Shown: piece after piece, positions 4,465 through 53,900 of the stretch | Layout: each line of letters opens with the position of its first letter | Numbering within the stretch: the stretch's first letter is position 1 | NCBI GenBank assembly: GCA_030627405.1 | Contig: DAOUSD010000001.1 | Coordinates: 1-54,907, forward strand | DNA: 54,907 bases | Source of the DNA: Deltaproteobacteria bacterium | GTDB lineage: Bacteria; Desulfobacterota; Desulfobacteria; Desulfobacterales; ETH-SRB1 | Direction of reading: 5' to 3' | Translations under genes and position numbers: made by a program | The notes under the pieces: generated by a model | What the model was told of the DNA's origin: nothing | Databases searched by the model: none | Seen by the model: the letters and a program-made list of their open reading frames with translations, nothing else

Positions 4465-7400
4465 TTATAATTGGTCTCCAAAATAACTTGTTAGAACAAA
4501 ATATATAGTTGCCCCAGTTGTATGAGATATATCTACACCAAGGTAACTTCCGCTTAATGCTGGCGTTACTGTTATATTTGTTGGATTTGAATCATATGTT
4601 TTATTATAATGTATAGAAGGAGTACCATTGTCGTAAGTTCCACAACTAACCCATTTAACAAGACCCAAGTAGTTTCCATTAACATCAGTGAATACTATTG
4701 AAGCATTTGCCACTACCATTTTATTACTCACACTTATTGCTGTCCCAGAAGTTGAATGCCAACCACTAGTTGATGCTCCAAGATTACCACTATATACATC
4801 TATTTCGCCACCTCCACTAGTTAGCAGATTAGTTTCTACCCCCGATTCATCCAAATAGTAAAGGTTATTGTCATCTTTTGGGTAGATAGTTCCATAATTA
4901 GTGGAACTTGCCGGGGTTGTTCTTTCTTTGATTCTGAATATGCCATCCATTAGCGAAGTTCCAGTTACAGAAAGATAACTGGATAAATCCGCGTACCCTC
5001 CTTCGAATCCTGAGCTGGCATTAATAATATTTCCAGACACATCCCCCGCTGCGATTAGGCTAGCCGATAAATATGCACTCCCTGTTACTTGGAACATGTA
5101 AGCACCATAATCGGCAACACTCCCCACTCTTACCTCATCGGTAATTGTAGCAGGTGCAATGGCTCCGGTTAATGTTTGCCACTTACTTGTACCAGTAGGA
5201 GCAGCCCAGATTCCATCACCTCGCCAAAAAGTAGATGCACTTGCACTTGTCCCAGAATTAAGATTACCAACCGGTAAATTACCAGAAACATCAGAAGCTA
5301 ATGAAATTTGAGCCTGAGTAGTGACAACCCCAGTAGTTGTAGCCGACTTCATAAATCCAGTTGACAATGAACCTAAAGCCTGCTCATTTGTTAAAGTTCC
5401 ATTTGCTGTTTGTGTAATATATGTCGCATCAGTTGGTGCGCCACCGCCTCCTGTCAAATCATACTCCGCTGTGCTAGTTGTGAAATATATTTTCTTATCA
5501 ACTGAACTCATCCATAAATCACCTACCGAGGAAGTTTGACCTGTTGGCGCGAGGGGTCGGCCTAGTAATCTCATATAGTTTCCACTTGCTAAAATAATAT
5601 TTCCACTGGTTAGCCATAAATTCCCATTCGTTAATGTTTGGTCTCCATTAAAAGAATTCGTACCACCCGTTCTAGCAAATCCCGTATGCCCAGAACTTGC
5701 GTAATCCAATTCTGTTAATCCTGAGTGATTATTAATACCACTTATTTTTGCATTATTAACCTCAACTTCATCAAATTTCGCCTTAGTCATTAATCCGGCT
5801 CTCGTCCCATCTGCACCAACCATCGTTGCATTAGTTCCATCGCTTGAATTAATATCGACGGTTGTAGTTGTAGCTGTTCCTTCTGATAAGTTGGTGGTGA
5901 TATTAGACACCACCGGAACTCCACCAATTGCCAAACTACTAAAATCACCGTCGATACTTGCGTCTTCTACTTGTGATTTGATTAACGATTGTGTGCCTAA
6001 TGTTGCTGCTGCGTGGGTTACTGTGCCTACTGATTCAATTGAACCATCAACTAATAAATTATTATCTCCTGGGTCACTTTCACCGCCAACATGTAACCCG
6101 CCATTTATAGCTGTTTTTGCAAGTGGTGTAGTGAAGCCGATGCCGACGTTGCCCTTCAAGACAGTCTTAGTAATATCGTCATTGCCTAGAACAACGGAAT
6201 TGCTTCCTGCTCCGTGCGTATTATAACCAATCACAATTTCATTTATACCGCCATCTGCTAGAGCTCTAGTATCATACCCTAAATATAGGGAGTTAGAAGA
6301 GGTCTCATTCTCAGCACCACTGATTATATATCTGCCAGATTGATAACCGTTGGCTGTATTATAGCGGCCAGTGGTATTGGAGTAGAGAGATTGCATCCCG
6401 TTGGCTGTATTATAGTAGCCAGTGGTATTGTAGTAGAGAGATTGATAACCGTTGGCTGTATTATAGTAGCCAGTGGTATTGGAGTAGAGAGATTGCATCC
6501 CGTTGGCTGTATTATAGCTGCCAGTGGTATTGTAGAAGAGAGACCGATAACCGTTGGCTGTATTATAGCTGCCAGTAGTGTTGTAGAAGAGAGATTGAGA
6601 ACCAAACCCAGCATTCCTATTATCGCTCAAATCATCAATAGCACCAGCACCGTACCCGAAGTAAGTAGAATTACCTAATCCTGTTTGATATACACGTCCT
6701 GCCACTTCAAGTTTAGTACCGTCATCGTAAATTAAACTATTACCAATCGAATTAACACCTGTGAATTTTGAAACGTAATTCGTTGTTCCTGACACGGAAG
6801 TATTAATAGTGCTATTAATCTTACTAGCACTCCACAATTCAGTCGCGCTTGTCCCAGCATCATTAATAATTCTATGCTGTCCGATTGCGTAATTTAACAA
6901 TCCATCGTGATTTATTTCTGAATCATTGGTTGTAATTGTATTTATTGCTCTAGTTAATCCAGTTGAGAAGGTTAATGGAACTTCGTAAGCCACGTTACTT
7001 CCGGCAGTTGCTAATCCTTTAGCATTTATTGTTACATTATTATAAGTTCCAATATTTGAATTAACTGTTGCAAGTGTTAATGCTGTTGCCCCCGTTGCAT
7101 CTCCTGTGTGAGTGGCGTTTGTAATTTTAGCAGTATTGGCAACAACACTTGAATTATTGCTAACTTCTGTATCGAAGTCGCTTATTTGAGTCGCTAGAAC
7201 GGCATGTGGATTACCCGTAACAAGTAAACTATGGTCATAAGCTATTTTACCTCTATCCCCACGATATGCAGTTACGGATGTTTCCCCTAATGCTAGATTT
7301 GAAGTGCCTGAGTTATCAGTAATTACAAATGCAGGGTAAGTTCCTCCGATTGTCACATTAGCACCACCTGAGAAAGAAACGGTTTTATCAAACAGCTTAG

Positions 7401-9723
7401 TAGTTCCTTCGGTAATATCATCTGTATCATCATTTAGTTTATTAAAATAATTGGTTTCGATGTAGGATATATCACTAACATTCTGATTTATGTCAGTTCT
7501 GTGAGCTGTTATTGAATCAGCATTTATTTGTATGTTGGTTGTATTGGTGTTTATATCTGTTCTCAAATTATTAACGGTATCATTCAATCCAATAACCTGA
7601 AATTGCGTTAACCGGAATCCTGTTGAATCAAAATCAGTCAGTAAAATATTTCCTTTAGGAATTGAGGTAAGGCCATCCTCACTGGAATTTACTACCATTA
7701 TATCGTCACCTCTACCAGCATAAGAAGTGAATACGTCACCTAAATCAATAAAATTATTAGCCCCAGAACCCCCGGCTCCTGCCCCTATTCCGGGAATCGC
7801 AAGGTCAATATAATCGACATCGTTTCCTGTTATTGGGTCTGTTACTGATACTATTCTGCCATGTACGGCATTAGTATAATTATCTCTTGTTTGATACACA
7901 ACCAAAGCAACTTTTGCAATTTCCTTAACAGGAAGGTTCTGTAATATAGTGGCAGCATCTGCCAGTCCGCCATCAACTGCATCCTGTTCGTCTGCATACG
8001 AAGCATGCCCGGGAATTGTGCCATATTTCAATCCGAGTGTATTACTGACAAGCATCAGATAATATACGTAATCTCCATTTGTTGCCTCGCTTAATTGCCA
8101 CGAACCGCCGACATCTTCGTTATACGCAAGTCTACCCGTACCTGTTGTAATTACACCAAATCCTGCATTTGTAGCCCTTAACCAAGCAGAAGTACCATCT
8201 TTATAAAATATTGAATATCCTTCTGCACTTACTGTTGCTGGAACAGATGTTTTAATGTCTTCATTTCTAATAGTACCAGATAAGTTTCCATATTGGGCAT
8301 GAGAATCTGAATTACCTGAGCCATCAATATCGAAATCGACTAATAATATAGGCTCTATAATAGTACAACCATGAACATCATATAAAGCACCTTTAGTCTT
8401 TCCATTCATGTCGAAAGTGTGAAATTCGTTGTTGACGAAGATAAAAGTCCCAAAAGTAAGAGAATGATAAATATTCATTATTCCAGGATACCTTTCCTTT
8501 ATTTGTCGTGATTCAGTATCGGTAGGGTTAGCAATTTCCGTTATCTCACCTTCATCATAATAAAGCAAATGAATTCCTTCTACATTCGAATAAACAAATG
8601 TATCCGCTGCAAATGCATACTTTTCTCCATCTTGATAATGATAAAATTCATCACCCGGAGTTGCAGTCAATATCAGTGTTCGCGTTGGTCCATCTAAACT
8701 TAGCCCAACATTGTCAGGAAAACTATTATCGTCAGCATCCGGCCATCCAGTATAGCCTTGTTGTTCTACTGTTACTGCAGATGTTCTAATGTCAACTATT
8801 ATTGTACCATCAGTAGCATCTATCTTTCCTGGACTGCCTACTATTGTCTCGTAGTGCCCTCCTATTGGTCTGGTAATGGTTATTTCTCCGTCACCATTTA
8901 GGTATAAGAATTTAACGCCAGCATAAGCCAGTGTGTTTAAACCTCCTACTTCTCCAAACTTAGTTACCCATCCAAATGTTAAAGGTGGAATATCATGTGT
9001 TGCAACAGCTATTAACGTTGACTTGTCTTTATATCGAGAATCTGCTAAGAATATTTCAGGTGAGCCAAATTGATCACCACTAGGTGCAACTATTATTCCA
9101 TTATGTATTGTATCTTCTGTATTGTTATAGATTCTTATTAAGTTTTCTAGTCCAATATTAACAGTCACACCCTCTATTTCATTATAATAGGCTAGGGTAT
9201 GTTTTATAGAATCGTAAAACGTTTTGCCTTCTTGATGAGTAAGACCTGATTGTAATGTGTATTGAATTGAGTCATGTGGATTAAATAACTGTCCCCAAAG
9301 GATATTCATATCTAACCTGTATCCATAATCGAAAGCTTTGGTGTCAAGTTTCTCGAACATATTTGTAGGCAAAGAATGGGAATCGCCATTTCCGGCTGAC
9401 TGGTAAACATATCCGATTTTACCTTGAAATGGCGCAAATCCAGCTCCGAAAATATCCACTACCGTAATAGTAGGCGATGCGGTTGTATCTATTACTAAAT
9501 ACCTTAATCCGCGATTGTCCATTAAGTAATTACCATATTTAAACGGGAAAGCACCTGGTTCGCTTAAATCTAATGGTAGCACGTCAACAGTGAATGTATC
9601 CGTATTAATAAATACTACGTTGTCCAAATTTGTACTCCATGCTATTTTTGGAAGATACTGAGTATAATCCTGAGACATCGAGAATAACGGAAGAAATAAT
9701 AGTACTATCAGTATTTTTTTCAT
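4465..9723 (-). CDS. Tail fibre or large receptor-binding structural protein
   Basis: 1752 aa, rich in G/T/S/N, downstream of the tape measure and baseplate-like genes. It has six 17-aa YNTANG..SL..NTTG repeats and a hydrophobic signal-like N-terminus. Confidence 0.8.
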   Translation of the reverse strand: MKKILIVLLFLPLFSMSQDYTQYLPKIAWSTNLDNVVFINTDTFTVDVLPLDLSEPGAFPFKYGNYLMDNRGLRYLVIDTTASPTITVVDIFGAGFAPFQGKIGYVYQSAGNGDSHSLPTNMFEKLDTKAFDYGYRLDMNILWGQLFNPHDSIQYTLQSGLTHQEGKTFYDSIKHTLAYYNEIEGVTVNIGLENLIRIYNNTEDTIHNGIIVAPSGDQFGSPEIFLADSRYKDKSTLIAVATHDIPPLTFGWVTKFGEVGGLNTLAYAGVKFLYLNGDGEITITRPIGGHYETIVGSPGKIDATDGTIIVDIRTSAVTVEQQGYTGWPDADDNSFPDNVGLSLDGPTRTLILTATPGDEFYHYQDGEKYAFAADTFVYSNVEGIHLLYYDEGEITEIANPTDTESRQIKERYPGIMNIYHSLTFGTFIFVNNEFHTFDMNGKTKGALYDVHGCTIIEPILLVDFDIDGSGNSDSHAQYGNLSGTIRNEDIKTSVPATVSAEGYSIFYKDGTSAWLRATNAGFGVITTGTGRLAYNEDVGGSWQLSEATNGDYVYYLMLVSNTLGLKYGTIPGHASYADEQDAVDGGLADAATILQNLPVKEIAKVALVVYQTRDNYTNAVHGRIVSVTDPITGNDVDYIDLAIPGIGAGAGGSGANNFIDLGDVFTSYAGRGDDIMVVNSSEDGLTSIPKGNILLTDFDSTGFRLTQFQVIGLNDTVNNLRTDINTNTTNIQINADSITAHRTDINQNVSDISYIETNYFNKLNDDTDDITEGTTKLFDKTVSFSGGANVTIGGTYPAFVITDNSGTSNLALGETSVTAYRGDRGKIAYDHSLLVTGNPHAVLATQISDFDTEVSNNSSVVANTAKITNATHTGDATGATALTLATVNSNIGTYNNVTINAKGLATAGSNVAYEVPLTFSTGLTRAINTITTNDSEINHDGLLNYAIGQHRIINDAGTSATELWSASKINSTINTSVSGTTNYVSKFTGVNSIGNSLIYDDGTKLEVAGRVYQTGLGNSTYFGYGAGAIDDLSDNRNAGFGSQSLFYNTTGSYNTANGYRSLFYNTTGSYNTANGMQSLYSNTTGYYNTANGYQSLYYNTTGYYNTANGMQSLYSNTTGRYNTANGYQSGRYIISGAENETSSNSLYLGYDTRALADGGINEIVIGYNTHGAGSNSVVLGNDDITKTVLKGNVGIGFTTPLAKTAINGGLHVGGESDPGDNNLLVDGSIESVGTVTHAAATLGTQSLIKSQVEDASIDGDFSSLAIGGVPVVSNITTNLSEGTATTTTVDINSSDGTNATMVGADGTRAGLMTKAKFDEVEVNNAKISGINNHSGLTELDYASSGHTGFARTGGTNSFNGDQTLTNGNLWLTSGNIILASGNYMRLLGRPLAPTGQTSSVGDLWMSSVDKKIYFTTSTAEYDLTGGGGAPTDATYITQTANGTLTNEQALGSLSTGFMKSATTTGVVTTQAQISLASDVSGNLPVGNLNSGTSASASTFWRGDGIWAAPTGTSKWQTLTGAIAPATITDEVRVGSVADYGAYMFQVTGSAYLSASLIAAGDVSGNIINASSGFEGGYADLSSYLSVTGTSLMDGIFRIKERTTPASSTNYGTIYPKDDNNLYYLDESGVETNLLTSGGGEIDVYSGNLGASTSGWHSTSGTAISVSNKMVVANASIVFTDVNGNYLGLVKWVSCGTYDNGTPSIHYNKTYDSNPTNITVTPALSGSYLGVDISHTTGATIYFVLTSYFGDQL
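6326..6615 (-). repeat. Tandem 51-nt (17-aa) coding repeat inside the fibre gene
   Basis: Near-identical units start at 6349, 6400, 6451, 6502 and 6553 (gttggctgtattatag..gccagtggtatt...). They encode NG[YM][RQ]SL[FY][YS]NTTG.YNTA. Confidence 0.9.
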
Positions 9724-10409
9724 TATTGAAGTAGGATTTCCAATTTTAATTTATAAGCCGTATAAAATACACTGATTGATTCAATTGTCACATTATTGTT
9801 GTCCATTAATATTCCAGAATAGGCATTATCGAAATTCCGTAATTGTCTGTAAAAATCTCCCGAAGTATTATAATAAACTGTTGTATTCGCATGGTATCTA
9901 CTTAATCCATGATTTACTTGCAAATCTCCCCCCGAAGCACTCAATACCCACCCCGTTGGATAGTCTGTACCCTCAACTGCTGCTGCCACACTCCCCGCTA
10001 AAGTGCCGTTAATGGGTAGTGTAATTTCGTAAACAGTTTGCGCCCCAGTCGCAGATAGCATACTGTCAACCGTCCTCTGCGTATAGAATATGTCTAAAGA
10101 GTCGGAATATTGAACATCTCTCCCATCTGTCAAAGTAGAATCTATTCTTGCCCCTGCATACCACCATACCAAATAACCGTTACTTGGTTGATATATTATC
10201 GAATCCCATCCATTCCCCGATCCTGCTGTGTTTAGAACAAATTGCCGTGTTGCTGCAATAGTGTCATTGCCATCAATTTGAGTAGTTCCCCTCAGTGAAT
10301 CACCAGTAATTATCAACTCGTAAGAAGCCTCAACTCTTTCTCCTTTTATTTGTGCATTGCCAGCTAATACTATAAGTGCAAGTGCTAATATTAAAATTAT
10401 TTTTTTCAT
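9723..10409 (-). CDS. Exported or tail-associated protein, function unknown
   Basis: 228 aa. The N-terminus is MKKIILILALALIVLAGNAQ. Its stop overlaps the fibre start codon. Confidence 0.6.
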   Translation of the reverse strand: MKKIILILALALIVLAGNAQIKGERVEASYELIITGDSLRGTTQIDGNDTIAATRQFVLNTAGSGNGWDSIIYQPSNGYLVWWYAGARIDSTLTDGRDVQYSDSLDIFYTQRTVDSMLSATGAQTVYEITLPINGTLAGSVAAAVEGTDYPTGWVLSASGGDLQVNHGLSRYHANTTVYYNTSGDFYRQLRNFDNAYSGILMDNNNVTIESISVFYTAYKLKLEILLQ

Positions 10410-49360: not shown

Positions 49361-49639
49361 ATGGAACAATTAAATTTAACACCAAAGGAACTAAAAAAAA
49401 TAGGATTTACCCAATTAAAAATAGAGGGTAACGAAATGAATAAGCCAAAAACAATTTATAAGATTGACTTTATAAATGGATATATTTATTGTAATCCAAA
49501 TGAAAAGATATACAAGTGGTATCACAAAACAATATTAGGAGATGCGGCTAATTATATTCATTTAGATATAACTAATAGACCTATATTATATACGCTACTA
49601 AGTTGTTTAAATATAGATTATGAGCTAGTGATGGTTTAA
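49361..49639 (+). CDS. Hypothetical protein
   Basis: 92-aa ORF. Confidence 0.5.
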   Translation: MEQLNLTPKELKKIGFTQLKIEGNEMNKPKTIYKIDFINGYIYCNPNEKIYKWYHKTILGDAANYIHLDITNRPILYTLLSCLNIDYELVMV

Positions 49640-49646
49640 TTGCATA

Positions 49647-49662
49647 TAATGGTTTGTGTATG
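49647..49662 (+). repeat. Early-arm intergenic motif copy
   Basis: taatggtttgtgtatg. Confidence 0.6.
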
Positions 49663-49675
49663 AAATTTAAAATTT

Positions 49676-49876
49676 ATGGATATGAAAAATGAAGACATTA
49701 AGGTGGCATGTGAACATCTATTCACAGTTATTAAAATGAGTGAAGATAAATTAAGTGAAATCAGAAAGATATGTAAACATGAAAAAACGTATGAAGGTAA
49801 TTACTCGTGGCGACCGGGGGCAATACAACTTGCAGACATTTGTGAGTATTGTGGTGAATTGGTACAGTATAAGTAA
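49676..49876 (+). CDS. Small Cys-containing protein
   Basis: 66 aa with the pattern C..H...C.H...CEYCG. Confidence 0.5.
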   Translation: MDMKNEDIKVACEHLFTVIKMSEDKLSEIRKICKHEKTYEGNYSWRPGAIQLADICEYCGELVQYK

Positions 49877-49917
49877 TAAATTTTATTTTTTATACACCTT
49901 GTTATAAATTGAAAATT

Positions 49918-50010
49918 ATGAGGAAAATACTTAATAGAATATTGGACGTTATAGCAATAATTTCACTCGCATATATAATACTGTATGCCGTGATAATTTT
50001 TTGTTTATAA
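49918..50010 (+). CDS. Tiny TM peptide, 30 aa (MRKILNRILDVIAIISLAYIILYAVIIFCL)
   Basis: Hand-translated. Its stop TAA is the first triplet of the next motif copy. Confidence 0.3.
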   Translation: MRKILNRILDVIAIISLAYIILYAVIIFCL

Positions 50011-50023
50011 CGGTTTGTGTTTG
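50008..50023 (+). repeat. Early-arm intergenic motif copy
   Basis: taacggtttgtgtttg, preceded by ttttttgttta. Confidence 0.6.
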
Positions 50024-50055
50024 TTTTGGAATTTTACGAATTTAAAACTACGAAT

Positions 50056-50388
50056 ATGATTAACGAAAATGTAACAAAAGTACTAGACCAGTTGAAATAC
50101 ATAGCTGAATTTGAAGAAAGCAAAAACGGAAATAAAGGGCATGTAATATGGAGCTATAACTTTTACAAGCTATCACAAGCTATAGTAAAATTATTAAATA
50201 AACATATTATTATGCCTTCGTTTGCGGAATTAAAGGAAATGAGGTTAAAAACTAGATACAGTATGCGACAAATAAGTAAAAAAACAGGAGTAAGTACCCC
50301 AACGATAAGCCGTATAGAAAAAGGGAATAATGCTGAATACCAGAACGTTAAAAAATTATACGAGTTTTATGTAGCAAATGAGGCATAA
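50056..50388 (+). CDS. XRE-family HTH transcriptional regulator
   Basis: The start was taken at MINENV. The C-terminal half is LKEMRLKTRYSMRQISKKTGVSTPTISRIEKGNN. Confidence 0.65.
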   Translation: MINENVTKVLDQLKYIAEFEESKNGNKGHVIWSYNFYKLSQAIVKLLNKHIIMPSFAELKEMRLKTRYSMRQISKKTGVSTPTISRIEKGNNAEYQNVKKLYEFYVANEA

Positions 50389-50401
50389 TGGTTGGCTAAG
50401 T
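50386..50401 (+). repeat. Early-arm intergenic motif copy (1-nt shorter)
   Basis: taatggttggctaagt. Its TAA is the stop of the HTH gene. Confidence 0.55.
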
Positions 50402-50431
50402 TTTGAAGTTTTAACGTAAAAAAAATAGATA

Positions 50432-50695
50432 ATGACAACAGAAGATTATTTTAACCAAGACGATTTACTTGCTACAAGTAAAGTACCAAAAGAGATACGA
50501 AGATTTACATACTTCGATTTATTAAAGTTCGCTGAATATTACCACAGAAGTGAGTTAAAGCTTTTAAATTTAGACTTTGCTAGCAAGCGAAGCGAACTGT
50601 TAATTGGCTTTATGGAAGATTTACGAAAAAACGGAGAACTACCAGAGTTGCTGAGCATTGAAAAAAGAGCTGCGAATTATTCAGCCAATTTATAG
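50432..50695 (+). CDS. Hypothetical protein
   Basis: 87-aa ORF. Confidence 0.55.
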   Translation: MTTEDYFNQDDLLATSKVPKEIRRFTYFDLLKFAEYYHRSELKLLNLDFASKRSELLIGFMEDLRKNGELPELLSIEKRAANYSANL

Positions 50696-50781
50696 TTGCT
50701 GACGGTAAATTGTAAGTGCTGACCGCTGTTAGATTACCGAAAGAATTTGAAACGAGAATAAAAATTATAAATTACCGAGCG

Positions 50782-51162
50782 ATGGACATGAAAAAATTAG
50801 AATACACAGAAACACAACACACTGGAAACCACGGAGATTTCCAAAACGTAATTATACAAGTAAAATTCATGGGAATTAACTTTTACCAACCAGCCAAAAT
50901 GAAAAGTATATTTAACTACAGCTACAGGTTGGCAAAATGGAGAATATTAAGGAATATTAAGCAAGTAATTAAGGGAGACATATTTGAACAGTGGGATGGC
51001 AAAGGGTATTCTACGGGCGCAAGCGGTTTGGATTTACACTTTGTTACCCAGCGAAGCGAACAGTTAAGCGATTTTGAGAAATGGCTTAACGACAAAGAGT
51101 ACGATTCAATGTGGACTAAACATTTAATTAGCGAATATAAAAAATTGCTTAATTGTGGGTAA
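50782..51162 (+). CDS. Hypothetical protein
   Basis: The start was taken at MDMKKLEY because the track GTG start lies inside a motif variant. Confidence 0.5.
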   Translation: MDMKKLEYTETQHTGNHGDFQNVIIQVKFMGINFYQPAKMKSIFNYSYRLAKWRILRNIKQVIKGDIFEQWDGKGYSTGASGLDLHFVTQRSEQLSDFEKWLNDKEYDSMWTKHLISEYKKLLNCG

Positions 51163-51175
51163 CGTTCCGGCTAAG
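51160..51175 (+). repeat. Early-arm intergenic motif copy
   Basis: taacgttccggctaag followed by aatagtgggcc. Its TAA is the stop codon. Confidence 0.55.
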
Positions 51176-51296
51176 AATAGTGGGCCGCGTAGATACCAAT
51201 AATGATAAAAATAGTTATATAAATTACTAATAAACAAGGACTTAAATGTGGGCCACGCCCATTATTTTTAGACTTTGTTACAAACTTTTAAAAATT

Positions 51297-51512
51297 ATGG
51301 ATTACAAGACATTGACACAACAATCAGACCATAATGCAGCTATTGAAAGAGAAGAATATAACTTATTTGCTACGATAAAGCCAAAACTTTACAAAGATGG
51401 CAACCAGTGGTGTTGCTTATATGGTGAAGATTTGCAGGTTGGAATTGCTGGTTTTGGCGATACACCATGGTTCGCAATAATGGATTGGAACAAAGGATGG
51501 CGTAAGCTATAA
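51297..51512 (+). CDS. Hypothetical protein
   Basis: The start was taken at MDYKTLTQQ, after a cttttaaaaattatg context. Confidence 0.5.
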   Translation: MDYKTLTQQSDHNAAIEREEYNLFATIKPKLYKDGNQWCCLYGEDLQVGIAGFGDTPWFAIMDWNKGWRKL

Positions 51513-51525
51513 TTTTATTTGTTTA

Positions 51526-51541
51526 TAATGGTTTGGTTAAG
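51526..51541 (+). repeat. Early-arm intergenic motif copy
   Basis: taatggtttggttaag, preceded by ttttatttgttta. Confidence 0.6.
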
Positions 51542-51628
51542 TTTTGAAGCCTAACCACAAACGATTAAATTTAGTATAAACTTTACATAGGCTTTTAAAT
51601 ATAGCTTTTGTTATAAACTTTTAAAATT

Positions 51629-51778
51629 ATGGATTTATTAAATGATGATACATCAATGACAGTAAGATGTGAAAACTGCGGATGGGAAGGTTACGATGAT
51701 GAATTAATTAAAAACGATGAATTTAGTAATGAAACTTATATGTATTGCCCGACTTGTTTAAGCGATAGAATTGAATAA
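51629..51778 (+). CDS. Small zinc-ribbon protein, 49 aa
   Basis: Hand-translated. The sequence MDLLNDDTSMTVRCENCGWEGYDDE...YCPTCLSDRIE follows a cttttaaaattatg context. Confidence 0.45.
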   Translation: MDLLNDDTSMTVRCENCGWEGYDDELIKNDEFSNETYMYCPTCLSDRIE

Positions 51779-51793
51779 TTTTTATTGTTTATA

Positions 51794-51809
51794 TAACGGC
51801 TCGTGCAAG
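51794..51809 (+). repeat. Early-arm intergenic motif copy
   Basis: taacggctcgtgcaag followed by aatagtggcg and attaacgcacgaa, and preceded by tttttattgttta. Confidence 0.6.
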
Positions 51810-51899
51810 AATAGTGGCGATTAACGCACGAAATTAGATTGAAAGAATACAGTAAAAAAGAAAAAAAGGGAGGGTTTTCTTCTCTTAAAAACTAAGAAT

Positions 51900-52763
51900 A
51901 TGAAAAACAAATTTAAAAACAATTGCTGTGATGGAATATATAACAGCTTTGATGTACACTTTACAAGTGCCTGTGATAATAAATGCGCACATTGTATTGA
52001 TATGAAATACTCTGGTTTTGATATTAAGAAACCTGATATTAACGCAATTGCAAAAACTATAATCGACAAGCAAGAAGGTTATAATGATGTTTTATTTTTA
52101 GGTGGAGAACCTTGTTTATATTTACAAGAGTTGATTGACTGCATTAAGCTTGTGAAAGCAAAAACTAAGCTTAAAATATTTGTAACTACTGCCGTGCCAA
52201 AAATATGCCACGATAGAATTGATTTATTCACAGAGCTTATTGCTTTGGTTGATGGAATGAATTTAAGCGTACAAAGCCACAATGAAGCTGTTGCAGATGA
52301 AATAAGGAAGGTTAAAAGTAAATATGACAGGCAATCTTTTTACAACAACCTACCAAGTAAAGAGAAGATTAGAATTAACCTTAATATTGTAAAGCCCTAT
52401 TTATACAAAAAAGAGGATATTGAAGAGTGTTTACTGCATTACGATAAGATGGGATTTAACTCTATTAAAATAAGTGAAATACAACACGGAAAAGATTATT
52501 TTGTTTCTTTTGAAGAAACATTTAATTTAAAGCTTGGTACACCTTATTTTAATGGATGCCAAAAATATTTAAAAATGAATGATTTGATACCAAACTTTAA
52601 AACTCCAGTACTACTAAAGAGAAGTTGCTTTATTTGCGAAAAAACGCTAAAAGCCTCTTTTATGGATGGTGTAAAAGTTTGCTCAAAATTATTTACAATA
52701 GCTAAGAAAAGCAACTATGGAGTTGTTTATGAAAACGGATGTTTAACTAAAGGATGGAGGTAA
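51900..52763 (+). CDS. Radical SAM enzyme, subfamily unassigned
   Basis: The Cx3Cx2C cluster motif is FTSACDNKCAHC (residues 25-32), followed by the LFLGGEP SAM-binding motif. 287 aa with 6 further Cys in the last 80 aa and no canonical SPASM pattern seen. Confidence 0.85.
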   Translation: MKNKFKNNCCDGIYNSFDVHFTSACDNKCAHCIDMKYSGFDIKKPDINAIAKTIIDKQEGYNDVLFLGGEPCLYLQELIDCIKLVKAKTKLKIFVTTAVPKICHDRIDLFTELIALVDGMNLSVQSHNEAVADEIRKVKSKYDRQSFYNNLPSKEKIRINLNIVKPYLYKKEDIEECLLHYDKMGFNSIKISEIQHGKDYFVSFEETFNLKLGTPYFNGCQKYLKMNDLIPNFKTPVLLKRSCFICEKTLKASFMDGVKVCSKLFTIAKKSNYGVVYENGCLTKGWR

Positions 52764-52768
52764 AAATT

Positions 52769-52855
52769 ATGTACACAAGAATTTTAAGAAAAGTTGCAAA
52801 CGCCATTGAAGCAATGGCAGGACACTGCGGAGGCAGTACGGGACATTGTTCCTAA
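52769..52855 (+). CDS. 28-aa peptide MYTRILRKVANAIEAMAGHCGGSTGHCS, candidate radical-SAM substrate or RiPP precursor
   Basis: Hand-translated. The ATG lies 5 nt after the rSAM stop, and GGAGG lies 8 nt upstream. The peptide has a helical basic N-terminal half and a G/H/C/S-rich C-terminal half with two GHC units. A hairpin terminator follows directly. Confidence 0.45.
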   Translation: MYTRILRKVANAIEAMAGHCGGSTGHCS

Positions 52856-52860
52856 CCAAA

Positions 52861-52900
52861 TTGGCTTGCAAAGCCAAAAGAGCGGTGGCTTTTTCTTTTT
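52861..52900 (+). terminator. Terminator candidate after the rSAM-peptide pair
   Basis: Hairpin TTGGCTT-gca-AAGCCAA lies at 52861..52877. An alternative stem pairs AGCCA with TGGCT (52886..90) and is followed by ttttcttttt. Confidence 0.5.
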
Positions 52901-53031
52901 GGTAAATTAGCACGAAACTCGATTGAAACACAGCGCATTACCTATATATGGTGTTGTGCGCTGTGCTTTCTCTTCTAAAAAGTGATAAGATTCAAAATTA
53001 AAACCTATTCGCTTTTTAGGGGCATTGCGCA

Positions 53032-53047
53032 CAACGGTTTGTGTATG
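53032..53047 (+). repeat. Early-arm intergenic motif copy
   Basis: caacggtttgtgtatg followed by catagtgcgc and gaattacgcacag. Confidence 0.6.
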
Positions 53048-53134
53048 CATAGTGCGCTTTTGAATTACGCACAGAAGTAAAAACGAAGATAACCAGCTCC
53101 GCATACGGTGTGCGAGGGCATAAAATTAAATAAG

Positions 53135-53380
53135 ATGATAAACAATGACTTATTAAAGGAGTTCAACGCCTTACAAAACGATGTTGAAAAGTGGAAATGG
53201 GTTAAAGAACATCAGCACACTGGCATAGTTATTATGCTGGATAATGATGATACGTTTGGTCAACTTCCCGACCAAGAAGACCCTGATGATATTCTGATAT
53301 TCCAATTCGATGATTATATTGGATACGGAGGTGTTGAAGAGTTGTTAAAAGCTTACGGCATTAAATCAGAGGGTGTGTAG
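53135..53380 (+). CDS. Small acidic protein
   Basis: The start was taken at MINNDLLKEF. A D/E-rich segment is DNDDTFGQLPDQEDPDDILIFQFDD. Confidence 0.5.
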   Translation: MINNDLLKEFNALQNDVEKWKWVKEHQHTGIVIMLDNDDTFGQLPDQEDPDDILIFQFDDYIGYGGVEELLKAYGIKSEGV

Positions 53381-53448
53381 GCAAAAGCCAAATACGAGAG
53401 CCAGCGCATTATGTATGACACTTTGTTATAGGCTTTTAAAATTACGGG

Positions 53449-53754
53449 ATGAAAAAAGAAAAATATTACTTTAAACGTAGTGACTCTGAGATTTGCAGAA
53501 CAGTAGCTTATTTTGATAGCTATATGCAGCAAAACAATTTAACAGAGATTGAAGTATTTGAAGCTGAGCCTGAAATTATAGGCGGTGGTATATTTTGGTG
53601 TAAGGAGCATTTGTTTTGCGGTGATGGAACGACAGACACCTGTGGTAAAAAGAATTGTAAAGACTACGAGCCACGAAACAAAATAAGCGGTGTATGTAAA
53701 CACCACACCCATAGACTATATACACACGGCAATAAAGTTACATTACGATTGTAG
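53449..53754 (+). CDS. Cys/His-rich protein
   Basis: 101 aa with the pattern CKEHLFCGDG..DTCGKKNC...CKHHTH. Confidence 0.55.
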   Translation: MKKEKYYFKRSDSEICRTVAYFDSYMQQNNLTEIEVFEAEPEIIGGGIFWCKEHLFCGDGTTDTCGKKNCKDYEPRNKISGVCKHHTHRLYTHGNKVTLRL

Positions 53755-53770
53755 CAATTTTTATTGTCTA

Positions 53771-53786
53771 TAACGTTGAATGTATG
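53771..53786 (+). repeat. Early-arm intergenic motif copy
   Basis: taacgttgaatgtatg, preceded by tttttattgtcta. Confidence 0.55.
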
Positions 53787-53900
53787 TGTAGTACAGCCTT
53801 GCACATATTTTCAACCTTAAATTAAACTTAATTGGCTGTATTACATATACATATTGTTAGCGTTTCGTTTTTGAGCGTTGGCATTTTAAAACTTAAAGCT

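Follow-up and report, generated by a model that had tools for sequence, protein, structure and literature searches.

In the described sactipeptide and ranthipeptide systems (SkfB/SkfA, AlbA/SboA, CteB/CteA 'SCIFF' and PapB/PapA), a radical S-adenosylmethionine (SAM) enzyme is encoded beside a short precursor peptide whose core cysteines are reactive, and PapA-type cores are built of repeated motifs in variable copy number. Much new enzyme chemistry comes from radical SAM peptide maturases, of which, to our knowledge, very few have been reported in phage genomes. Here we describe a gene pair of similar layout in a 54,907-nucleotide (nt) stretch of DNA (the window; Deltaproteobacteria bacterium, assembly GCA_030627405.1, contig DAOUSD010000001.1, positions 1 to 54,907), which otherwise carries tailed-phage genes (terminase, portal, HK97-type capsid, tape measure, RecE/RecT-like and replication genes). 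The pair consists of a 287-amino-acid (aa) enzyme and, beginning 5 nt past its stop codon as the first-pass annotation had reported, a 28-codon open reading frame (ORF) encoding MYTRILRKVANAIEAMAGHCGGSTGHCS. Comparison across related loci makes it likely that the two genes form a self-contained, phage-borne maturase–substrate module which makes a modified peptide. The module differs from the sactipeptide and ranthipeptide systems in being carried by phages without a protease or exporter, in the small size of its enzyme, and in a G-[GH]-C core whose last Cys is C-terminal and in which acceptor patterns of the known kind (CxxxD, for example) are missing.

The central evidence for this reading is the coupling of enzyme and partner. 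Loci were collected from IMG/VR, from JGI and ENA metagenomes, from GTDB genomes, from phage GenBank records and by single-protein look-ups, and 132 of them contained the 3' end of the enzyme gene together with at least 100 nt of downstream DNA. An automatic search for a same-strand ORF 3' of the enzyme with at least two small-small-Cys units returned a partner in 124 of these 132 loci, and seven of the remaining eight carry the partner on inspection. The automatic call had failed there on a non-ATG start (L075), on E-H-C (L140) or S/T-H-C (L053) units, on C-H in place of H-C (L080, ...GSGCHDSHTPSCH), on plain Cys (L054, ...NACEGGGSICGN), or on a frameshift in the enzyme (L026) or the precursor (L001). 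The eighth locus, L057, is uninformative because its DNA ends 303 nt past the enzyme and, in its twin L056 with an identical enzyme, the precursor starts only 344 nt downstream. The first-pass annotation had made its proposal of a RiPP-like cassette (ribosomally synthesised and post-translationally modified peptide) hinge on whether the downstream ORF is conserved among relatives; its position, strand and Cys pattern are kept down to 33% enzyme identity, in the Lak megaphages. The reverse search, with a leader DNA pattern in IMG/VR, gave 54 matches, comprising 43 instances of one unrelated repeated ORF, three unrelated or truncated sequences and eight true HC-type peptides. All eight have enzyme sequence immediately upstream, matched over its full length in seven and in part in L174, a locus that stops at that point. 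When the cassette was compared at the nucleotide level with phage GenBank records, no match was obtained. Clustering of neighbouring genes in the window's clade (enzymes at 55–87% identity) returned no third gene family common to the loci, the next-largest 'families' being two sets of antisense ORFs inside the radical SAM gene. As no other family is common to the loci, the conserved unit comprises two genes, without a protease, exporter or immunity gene. Judged from these comparisons, the Cys-motif ORF is obligately co-located with the enzyme, is under protein-level selection and co-diversifies with it; the locus thus has, at the level of sequence, the general RiPP layout of a leader-and-core precursor beside a co-conserved enzyme.

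Within the window's clade, 85 distinct small-ORF sequences encode 83 distinct peptides. Reading frame, start and stop are kept across all 85, differences in length are whole codons, and in 55 of the 83 peptides the start Met is at -19, counted from the first Cys. The leader half follows a clade-wide M-[YFW]-T-[KR]-h-L-[RK]-K pattern and the residue before H-C is Gly in 176 of 185 motifs, with all synonymous codons in use (GGA 79, GGT 55, GGG 31, GGC 11; CAT 138, CAC 47; TGT 112, TGC 73). The spacer between Cys units varies from 3 to 14 residues without a conserved acceptor residue, and in most peptides just one residue stands after the last Cys (S in 33 cases, Y in 30). Because the amino-acid pattern is kept while synonymous codons vary freely, the small ORF is a protein-coding gene, and the codon data place it under protein-level purifying selection. 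That it might instead be a conserved RNA or terminator element, or a chance ORF, is suggested by its very small size, its absence from the ORF track used for the first-pass annotation, and the lack of a gene call at its position in a Clostridium perfringens assembly (L146; judged from the annotation, not the sequence). Against this stand the pattern and frame held across 85 sequences, the existence of in-frame fusions of the small ORF to the enzyme, and its listing in several databases as a 'hypothetical protein' (the enzyme being listed as 'radical SAM protein' or 'organic radical activating enzyme'); given that frame, start and stop are conserved while codon usage is free, a non-coding origin is effectively refuted. 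Scans of the peptides against PHROGs and NCBIfam assigned no family. The paired motif [GSA][GH]C-x(2-20)-[GSA][GH]C occurs once across the six frames of the 54.9-kb window.

The partner takes a different form in distant clades. Enzymes at 33–47% identity are accompanied by proteins of 83–177 aa, in which a helical N-terminal part with D-x-I-T-K-K-I-x...A...N-x-L-F precedes a Gly/Ser/Tyr/Asp-rich tail with two to seven GGC units and a ...GGC-TAA end. These long partners are found in Lak megaphages (...YSSGGCGNTYGSPYHHWSGGC), in the rumen and gut megaphages L056 and L141–L144, and in L039, L055, L059 and L060. In Lak-B1 (MK250020), the gene at 9255..10127 is paired with a 166-aa partner. The universal element is a Cys preceded by small residues, and of the GHC-repeat peptide described from the window alone it is this small-residue–Cys unit that is conserved throughout; the His is specific to the window's clade and absent in the deep clades, and the short length likewise does not extend to the distant partners. 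Two intermediate forms were found, MKRLLTKLIRKYDIGESCTGSCWVGGC, downstream of a double radical SAM fusion protein, and MIRKRLLRFFVRHQRMNACEGGGSICGN. Cores contain two, three, four or seven units and never fewer than two, and L008/L021 carry tandem precursor genes. A natural enzyme–precursor fusion, P0125, is a 346-aa ORF verified on its contig, with the C-terminus ...SHDCHSGRGSRTGHC. In P0353/L026 (around 4831–4954), an A-run close to the 3' end of the radical SAM gene has one additional A, which fuses the precursor in frame to give 318 aa; this form, seen on four contigs, may be genuine variation, slippage or a homopolymer sequencing error that recurs. The GGC-tail gene of L001 (Lak-A2, MK250019; 3880–4224) is frameshifted at an A8 run that is A7 in the near-identical L043, with the tail including GGC-stop intact in the shifted frame; the frameshift probably stems from misassembly of the deposited sequence.

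Two further architectures were observed in passing. The L202 gene at 67–2154 (P0175, 695 aa) fuses two radical SAM domains, the C-terminal one belonging to the present enzyme family and the N-terminal one having a GCPCGCKFC motif and appearing RlmN/Cfr-like by eye; a 27-aa precursor gene with a strong Shine–Dalgarno sequence follows it. The family member P0161 (361 aa) has a C-terminal extension resembling an excisionase/MerR-type helix-turn-helix and ending in ...SSETQCHGISY, with a single Cys-His, and may be another enzyme–partner fusion.

The enzyme is, by its Pfam scores, a member of the radical SAM superfamily (PF04055, Radical_SAM, 43.3 bits against a cut-off of 29.5; PF13353, Fer4_12, 33.6 against 22). 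The cluster-binding C25-x3-C29-x2-C32 lies within FTSACDNKCAHC, and LFLGGEP occupies residues 65–71 (GGEP 68–71), as first read. Placement in a nucleotide- or cofactor-modifying clade would have spoken against a peptide maturase, and such membership was not seen, every curated NCBIfam cut-off being missed. The enzyme scored 37 bits against a cut-off of 180 for viperin_w_prok (NF038283), 22.5 against 450 for the viperin model TIGR04278, 40.5 against 129.7 for tatD_link_rSAM, 36.3 against 262 for TIGR04100, 21–22.5 against 126–152 for the NrdG models, 20.3 against 284 for MoaA and 13.6 against 174 for the PFL-activase model PFLE_PFLC. Scores were similarly low for TIGR04053, PqqE and TIGR04084 (29, 17.5 and 15 bits against 395, 381 and 225) and for HxsC and HxsB (19–20 against 268–370). 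The 19 NCBIfam matches at E ≤ 1 include no QueE model, no other SPASM-type maturase model and none of the curated sactipeptide or ranthipeptide maturase models. Membership of the QueE, NrdG, MoaA, viperin and anSME families was rejected on these hidden Markov model (HMM) results, as cut-offs missed or no match. The family is small and discrete, with 295 clusters (50% identity, E ≤ 0.001) among 1.84 billion representatives, and its nearest out-group proteins, at 25–30% identity, are unnamed MoaA/viperin/SPASM-like proteins that offer no functional lead.

An AlphaFold model of the enzyme, built from a 69-sequence alignment spanning 31–87% identity to the window enzyme, has a mean predicted local distance difference test score (pLDDT) of 92.7 and a predicted template modelling (TM) score of 0.89. 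Foldseek matched it in the PDB to MoaA, viperin, CteB, SuiB, anSME, PFL-AE, SkfB, EpeE and BtrN at TM-scores of 0.38–0.62. The top match is MoaA (0.62 over about 300 columns), and CteB, SuiB, anSME, SkfB and EpeE are peptide maturases, which together with MoaA and viperin span 0.42–0.62. No close viral structure was returned by a fold search of BFVD. On the modelled fold, the enzyme belongs to the MoaA/viperin/SPASM-Twitch neighbourhood of the superfamily, without a specific home there. Besides the three cluster ligands, a 21-sequence alignment contains four extra invariant Cys residues (C10, C103, C220 and C243), and W286 is also invariant in the family; in the 69-sequence alignment C10 and C220 remain invariant, with conservation of at least 90% at C103 and C243. 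In the model, C220 and C243 flank a C-terminal beta-hairpin (221–240) that is followed by a helix (254–265). From their conservation and from this hairpin and helix, the four residues are predicted to bind a probable Twitch-like auxiliary Fe-S cluster, a second cluster that would be a likely point of likeness to the sactipeptide and ranthipeptide systems.

We infer from these patterns that the peptide is the substrate which the enzyme actually modifies. The peptide, or the 83–177-aa protein in megaphages, would be made on the ribosome and would dock on the enzyme through its basic amphipathic N-terminal helix (M-Y-T-K-L-L-R-K...) as the recognition element, leaving the flexible Gly-rich C-terminal part to present at least two small-small-Cys units (GHC, or GGC in distant clades). 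Reductive SAM cleavage at the C25/C29/C32 cluster would then yield a 5'-deoxyadenosyl radical able to abstract hydrogen from a carbon within or adjacent to each unit, and the predicted second Fe-S cluster on C10, C103, C220 and C243 would hold the Cys thiolate, accept an electron, or both. The most likely outcome of such a scheme would be thioether cross-links formed by the Cys residues, as in sactionines or ranthionines. This is a best guess held tentatively, on the grounds that thioethers are the commonest radical SAM outcome on Cys-bearing precursors and that the cores never have fewer than two units. The product would probably act within the infected cell, either early on in taking over the host or in countering its defences, since the module lacks a protease or exporter.

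The same enzyme–substrate pairing could serve a different chemistry, in which each Cys is altered singly or built upon, as in formylglycine formation, epimerisation, a His-Cys link, a metal-binding unit or a small cofactor assembled on the C-terminal Cys. Single-residue chemistry or a metal-binding product is viable given the odd numbers of units (three and seven), which make strict pairing unnecessary, the variable spacers without a conserved acceptor, the position of the last Cys at or within one to three residues of the C-terminus, and the adjacent His, which is nearly universal in one clade and may lie on either side (GCH...SCH in L080). anSME and EpeE are moreover among the fold matches. 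The anSME motif C/S-x-P/A-x-R, however, is absent from the core GHCGGSTGHCS and, by eye, from the listed peptides, no follow-up enzyme such as a protease or oxidase is conserved nearby, and the minimum of two units favours cooperation or cross-linking. The present data do not separate single-Cys chemistry from thioether formation, and we regard the former as possible but on the unlikely side. About as speculative is the idea that the family installs on the G-x-C units a Cys modification new to radical SAM peptide chemistry, giving a phage effector that would work inside the infected cell against host defence or metabolism; covalent inhibitors and metal- or redox-active peptides are examples.

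Several observations weigh against the maturase–substrate reading itself. SPASM and RRE domains are present in most thioether-forming maturases; in the phage enzyme, neither the SPASM domain PF13186 (at E ≤ 1) nor a PqqD-like, leader-binding RRE domain was matched in Pfam, and the modelled enzyme begins only 15 residues before strand 1 of the barrel. The sactipeptide or ranthipeptide maturase type named initially for its similar arrangement is therefore not borne out by membership, and no link was found to the GG-leader peptides of Bacteroidota. When short and long precursors were compared profile to profile, the alignment was limited to the G-x-C unit (probability 1%); homology of the two kinds of leader is not demonstrable in this way, and the link between them rests on the intermediate forms and on the homology of the enzymes. 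An AlphaFold model of the natural fusion P0353 left the peptide part undocked at pLDDT below 50 and is uninformative. Viperins were also the first matches when the family profile was compared with PDB sequences (E = 1.1e-11, residues 13–210), and in megaphages the module adjoins NAD-salvage or nucleotide genes. These last two points favour a viperin- or MoaA-like nucleotide or cofactor enzyme with the Cys-rich product as an accessory that might, for example, donate metal or Fe-S, act as a chaperone or regulate. Consistent with that, the PADLOC pVip defence models match members of all three clades at 41–45 bits, MoaA is the top fold match, the megaphage neighbours include PnuC, NadR and a phosphoribosyltransferase (PRTase)-like gene, with the PnuC stop overlapping the radical SAM start, and the two His and two Cys of the window peptide could bind a metal unmodified.

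The likeness to viperins is confined to the core barrel. The pVip matches cover profile positions 3–189 of 257–262, alignments to viperin structures stop at about residue 193–228 of the enzyme, and the C-terminal 80 or so residues (210–287), which include the invariant C220 and C243, are family-specific and unmatched by viperins, whose own C-terminal extension is the nucleotide-binding part. Viperins are nucleotide-modifying enzymes that act on free nucleoside triphosphates without a peptide partner; the phage enzyme differs from them in its four extra invariant Cys and its obligate Cys-motif partner. MoaA, a GTP 3',8-cyclase, carries a C-terminal auxiliary [4Fe-4S] cluster, yet its model is missed by a wide margin, its Cys pattern differs, and no molybdenum-cofactor genes were found near the enzyme, either among the large window ORFs scanned or by neighbour clustering. 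The leader and repeat-core layout, variable copy number, tandem genes and fusions fit a substrate better than a cofactor donor, the His is missing in deep clades, and the NAD-gene neighbourhood is limited to related megaphages and absent in the window's clade. We therefore consider a nucleotide or cofactor enzyme improbable. Still less probable is an activase that would place a glycyl radical on the Gly-rich tail in the manner of NrdG/NrdD, PFL-AE/PFL or GrcA. JGI labels relatives of the enzyme 'organic radical activating enzyme' or 'PFL-activating enzyme', NrdG and PFL-AE give weak HMM and fold matches, and some tails contain C-G-Y (GGCGY in L060), Cys-Gly-Tyr being the glycyl-radical motif of class III ribonucleotide reductases. 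The activase cut-offs are nevertheless missed by a wide distance, the invariant residue is Cys and not Gly in an RVxG[FY] context, nothing lies beyond the last unit where this forms the C-terminus (GGC-stop), and a stable glycyl radical is unlikely to be sheltered by a flexible 28-aa peptide. No NrdD- or PFL-like glycyl-radical enzyme was found among the large window ORFs scanned, which do not comprise every ORF of the window; within that scope the missing NrdD partner pointed out by the first-pass annotation is confirmed. A maturase acting on its neighbouring peptide remains the reading that comparative genomics favours, neither loss of the partner among relatives nor membership of a nucleotide or cofactor clade having been seen.

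Other described systems resemble this module in part. The His-Xaa-Ser (HxsA with HxsB/HxsC) and three-residue-motif cyclophane systems likewise have a short repeated core motif processed by radical SAM enzymes, but differ in motif and chemistry, in using SPASM enzymes and in having extra genes. The mycofactocin (MftA/MftC) and 'pearlin' pathways share reactive residues at the extreme C-terminus of the precursor, and MftA is acted on by a radical SAM enzyme; these pathways need further enzymes (chaperone, peptidase, ligase), whereas the phage unit has two genes and internal repeats. Microcin B17 and heterocycloanthracin-type precursors have similar Gly/Ser/Cys-rich cores with Gly before Cys, which is a resemblance only; they are processed by a YcaO cyclodehydratase, and no such gene is conserved beside the phage enzyme. 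A full-text literature search found no description of the enzyme–peptide system, and NCBIfam, Pfam and PHROGs hold no model for the enzyme subfamily or the peptide. The system is a new family within a known kind, that of a radical SAM enzyme with a ribosomal precursor, and is unusual in being phage-borne, minimal and common to very different phages. If the speculative new Cys modification and phage effector are true, this would be the first widespread RiPP class native to phages, extending from 55-kb siphophages to Lak megaphages. Selection keeps the compact two-gene module in phages of very different size, which for phage biology points to a modified peptide produced during infection; for chemistry, if the substrate reading holds, it would offer a small, SPASM-less 287-aa enzyme that works on a simple repeat, G-[GH]-C. 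Both genes are short enough for heterologous expression.

In size, the carriers run from about 55 kb (contigs) to about 550 kb (Lak genomes). Prevotella (Lak phages), C. perfringens (an SPbeta-like element) and Lachnospiraceae are among the hosts, and the habitats are anaerobic (gut, rumen, sludge and sediment). GTDB contains the family in only six of 185,579 species genomes, all on contigs of metagenome-assembled genomes. The C. perfringens carrier is an isolate (L146; GCA_011062585.1, JAALLZ010000006.1, 10001–10960), so native detection may be possible if the strain is in culture. There the module lies on a 157.6-kb contig with SPbeta-like neighbours (YorF, YorH, PolIII alpha, gyrase and RecJ), and its enzyme is identical to that of L145, in which a 32-aa gene is called directly downstream.

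In the rumen and gut megaphages, the module lies in a conserved block in the order TonB-dependent receptor, NadR-like protein, PnuC, radical SAM enzyme, GGC-tail protein and gp25 baseplate protein. PnuC scores 133 bits against a cut-off of 42, and the NadR-like nicotinamide mononucleotide adenylyltransferase/kinase scores 197 bits to TIGR01526, under the 341-bit cut-off. The PnuC stop overlaps the radical SAM start in L056, L060, L143 and L057/L058 but not in L142, and in L141 another gene stands between them. The block upstream of the enzyme (TonB receptor, NadR and PnuC) was noted in L056, L060, L141, L142 and L143 (e.g. L143 1596–7176) and, from its gene content, looks like a phage set for uptake and salvage of nicotinamide riboside in an outer-membrane host. 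The intervening L141 gene (5117–6004) encodes a Peptidase_C10 (streptopain-like) protein with a signal-like N-terminus and is absent in sister loci. In Lak phages, a PRTase-domain ORF lies 2 nt upstream of the radical SAM gene. NAD-salvage genes act elsewhere as counter-defence functions, and the neighbourhood hints weakly that the module serves counter-defence or takeover, but is not evidence of this. NAD-synthesis gene clusters in gut jumbo phages have already been published (PMC11662467); that article mentions PnuC and NadR but neither the receptor nor the radical SAM enzyme, and the word 'radical' is absent from its main text.

The layout of the cassette in the window is given in Table 1. 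The GGAGG run that had been read as a Shine–Dalgarno sequence is present 8 nt before the ATG, but is partly forced by the enzyme codons GGA TGG AGG (G-W-R); with W286 invariant across the family, coding constraint accounts for at least part of it. Similar purine runs are found at the same point in related loci. The 7-bp hairpin after the peptide gene is likewise real, but the T-run once described as immediate begins 13 nt later. The fold z-score of the hairpin region is only -1.5, a second, weak hairpin with a T-run lies beyond 52877 and reaches about 52900, and a consensus scan gave no + strand terminator call, so that a terminator here is plausible but weak. The bracketing of the cassette by an intergenic motif holds. 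AACGGnTnGTGnAnGnATAGTG has four matches in the window (124, 1249, 51795 and 53033) against 0.04 expected by chance, with related copies among the intergenic repeat families D1 and D3, and may be a phage promoter or operator. GCACGAAAnTnGATTGAAA has only two matches in the window, one on either side of the cassette.

Table 1. Features of the enzyme–peptide cassette and its flanks in the window (51795–53054).
Feature	Coordinates	Strand	Basis or remark
Upstream copy of recurrent intergenic motif AACGGnTnGTGnAnGnATAGTG	51795..51816	+	Motif search of window
First copy of GCACGAAAnTnGATTGAAA	51826..51844	+	56 nt 5' of radical SAM start codon
Radical SAM enzyme gene, 287 aa	51900..52763	+	ORF, HMMs, alignments, model
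GGAGG purine run	52756..52760	+	8 nt before peptide ATG, within enzyme 3' codons
Putative precursor peptide gene, 28 aa, MYTRILRKVANAIEAMAGHCGGSTGHCS	52769..52855	+	ORF; conserved 3' of enzyme in relatives
Leader-like half of peptide, MYTRILRKVANAIEAMA	52769..52819	+	Clade-wide motif M-[YFW]-T-[KR]-h-L-[RK]-K
Core-like half of peptide, GHC-GGST-GHC-S	52820..52852	+	Cys codons 52826-52828, 52847-52849
7-bp hairpin TTGGCTT-gca-AAGCCAA	52861..52877	+	Possible weak terminator
Second copy of GCACGAAAnTnGATTGAAA	52910..52928	+	Directly 3' of cassette
Downstream copy of intergenic motif AACGGnTnGTGnAnGnATAGTG	53033..53054	+	Marks start of next transcription unit

Elsewhere in the window, no tRNA genes were found and some of the large ORFs scanned gave no family match. 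In the right arm (49636–53791), intergenic repeats of about 30 nt (TTTGTTTATAAYGGTTTGTGTATG-like) precede many small + strand ORFs and probably serve as early promoters or operators of the phage; the sigma-70 consensus used in the scan did not match them. Directly 5' of the cassette, a 49-aa ORF (51629–51778) has two CxxC pairs (CENC...CPTC) and is zinc-ribbon-like.

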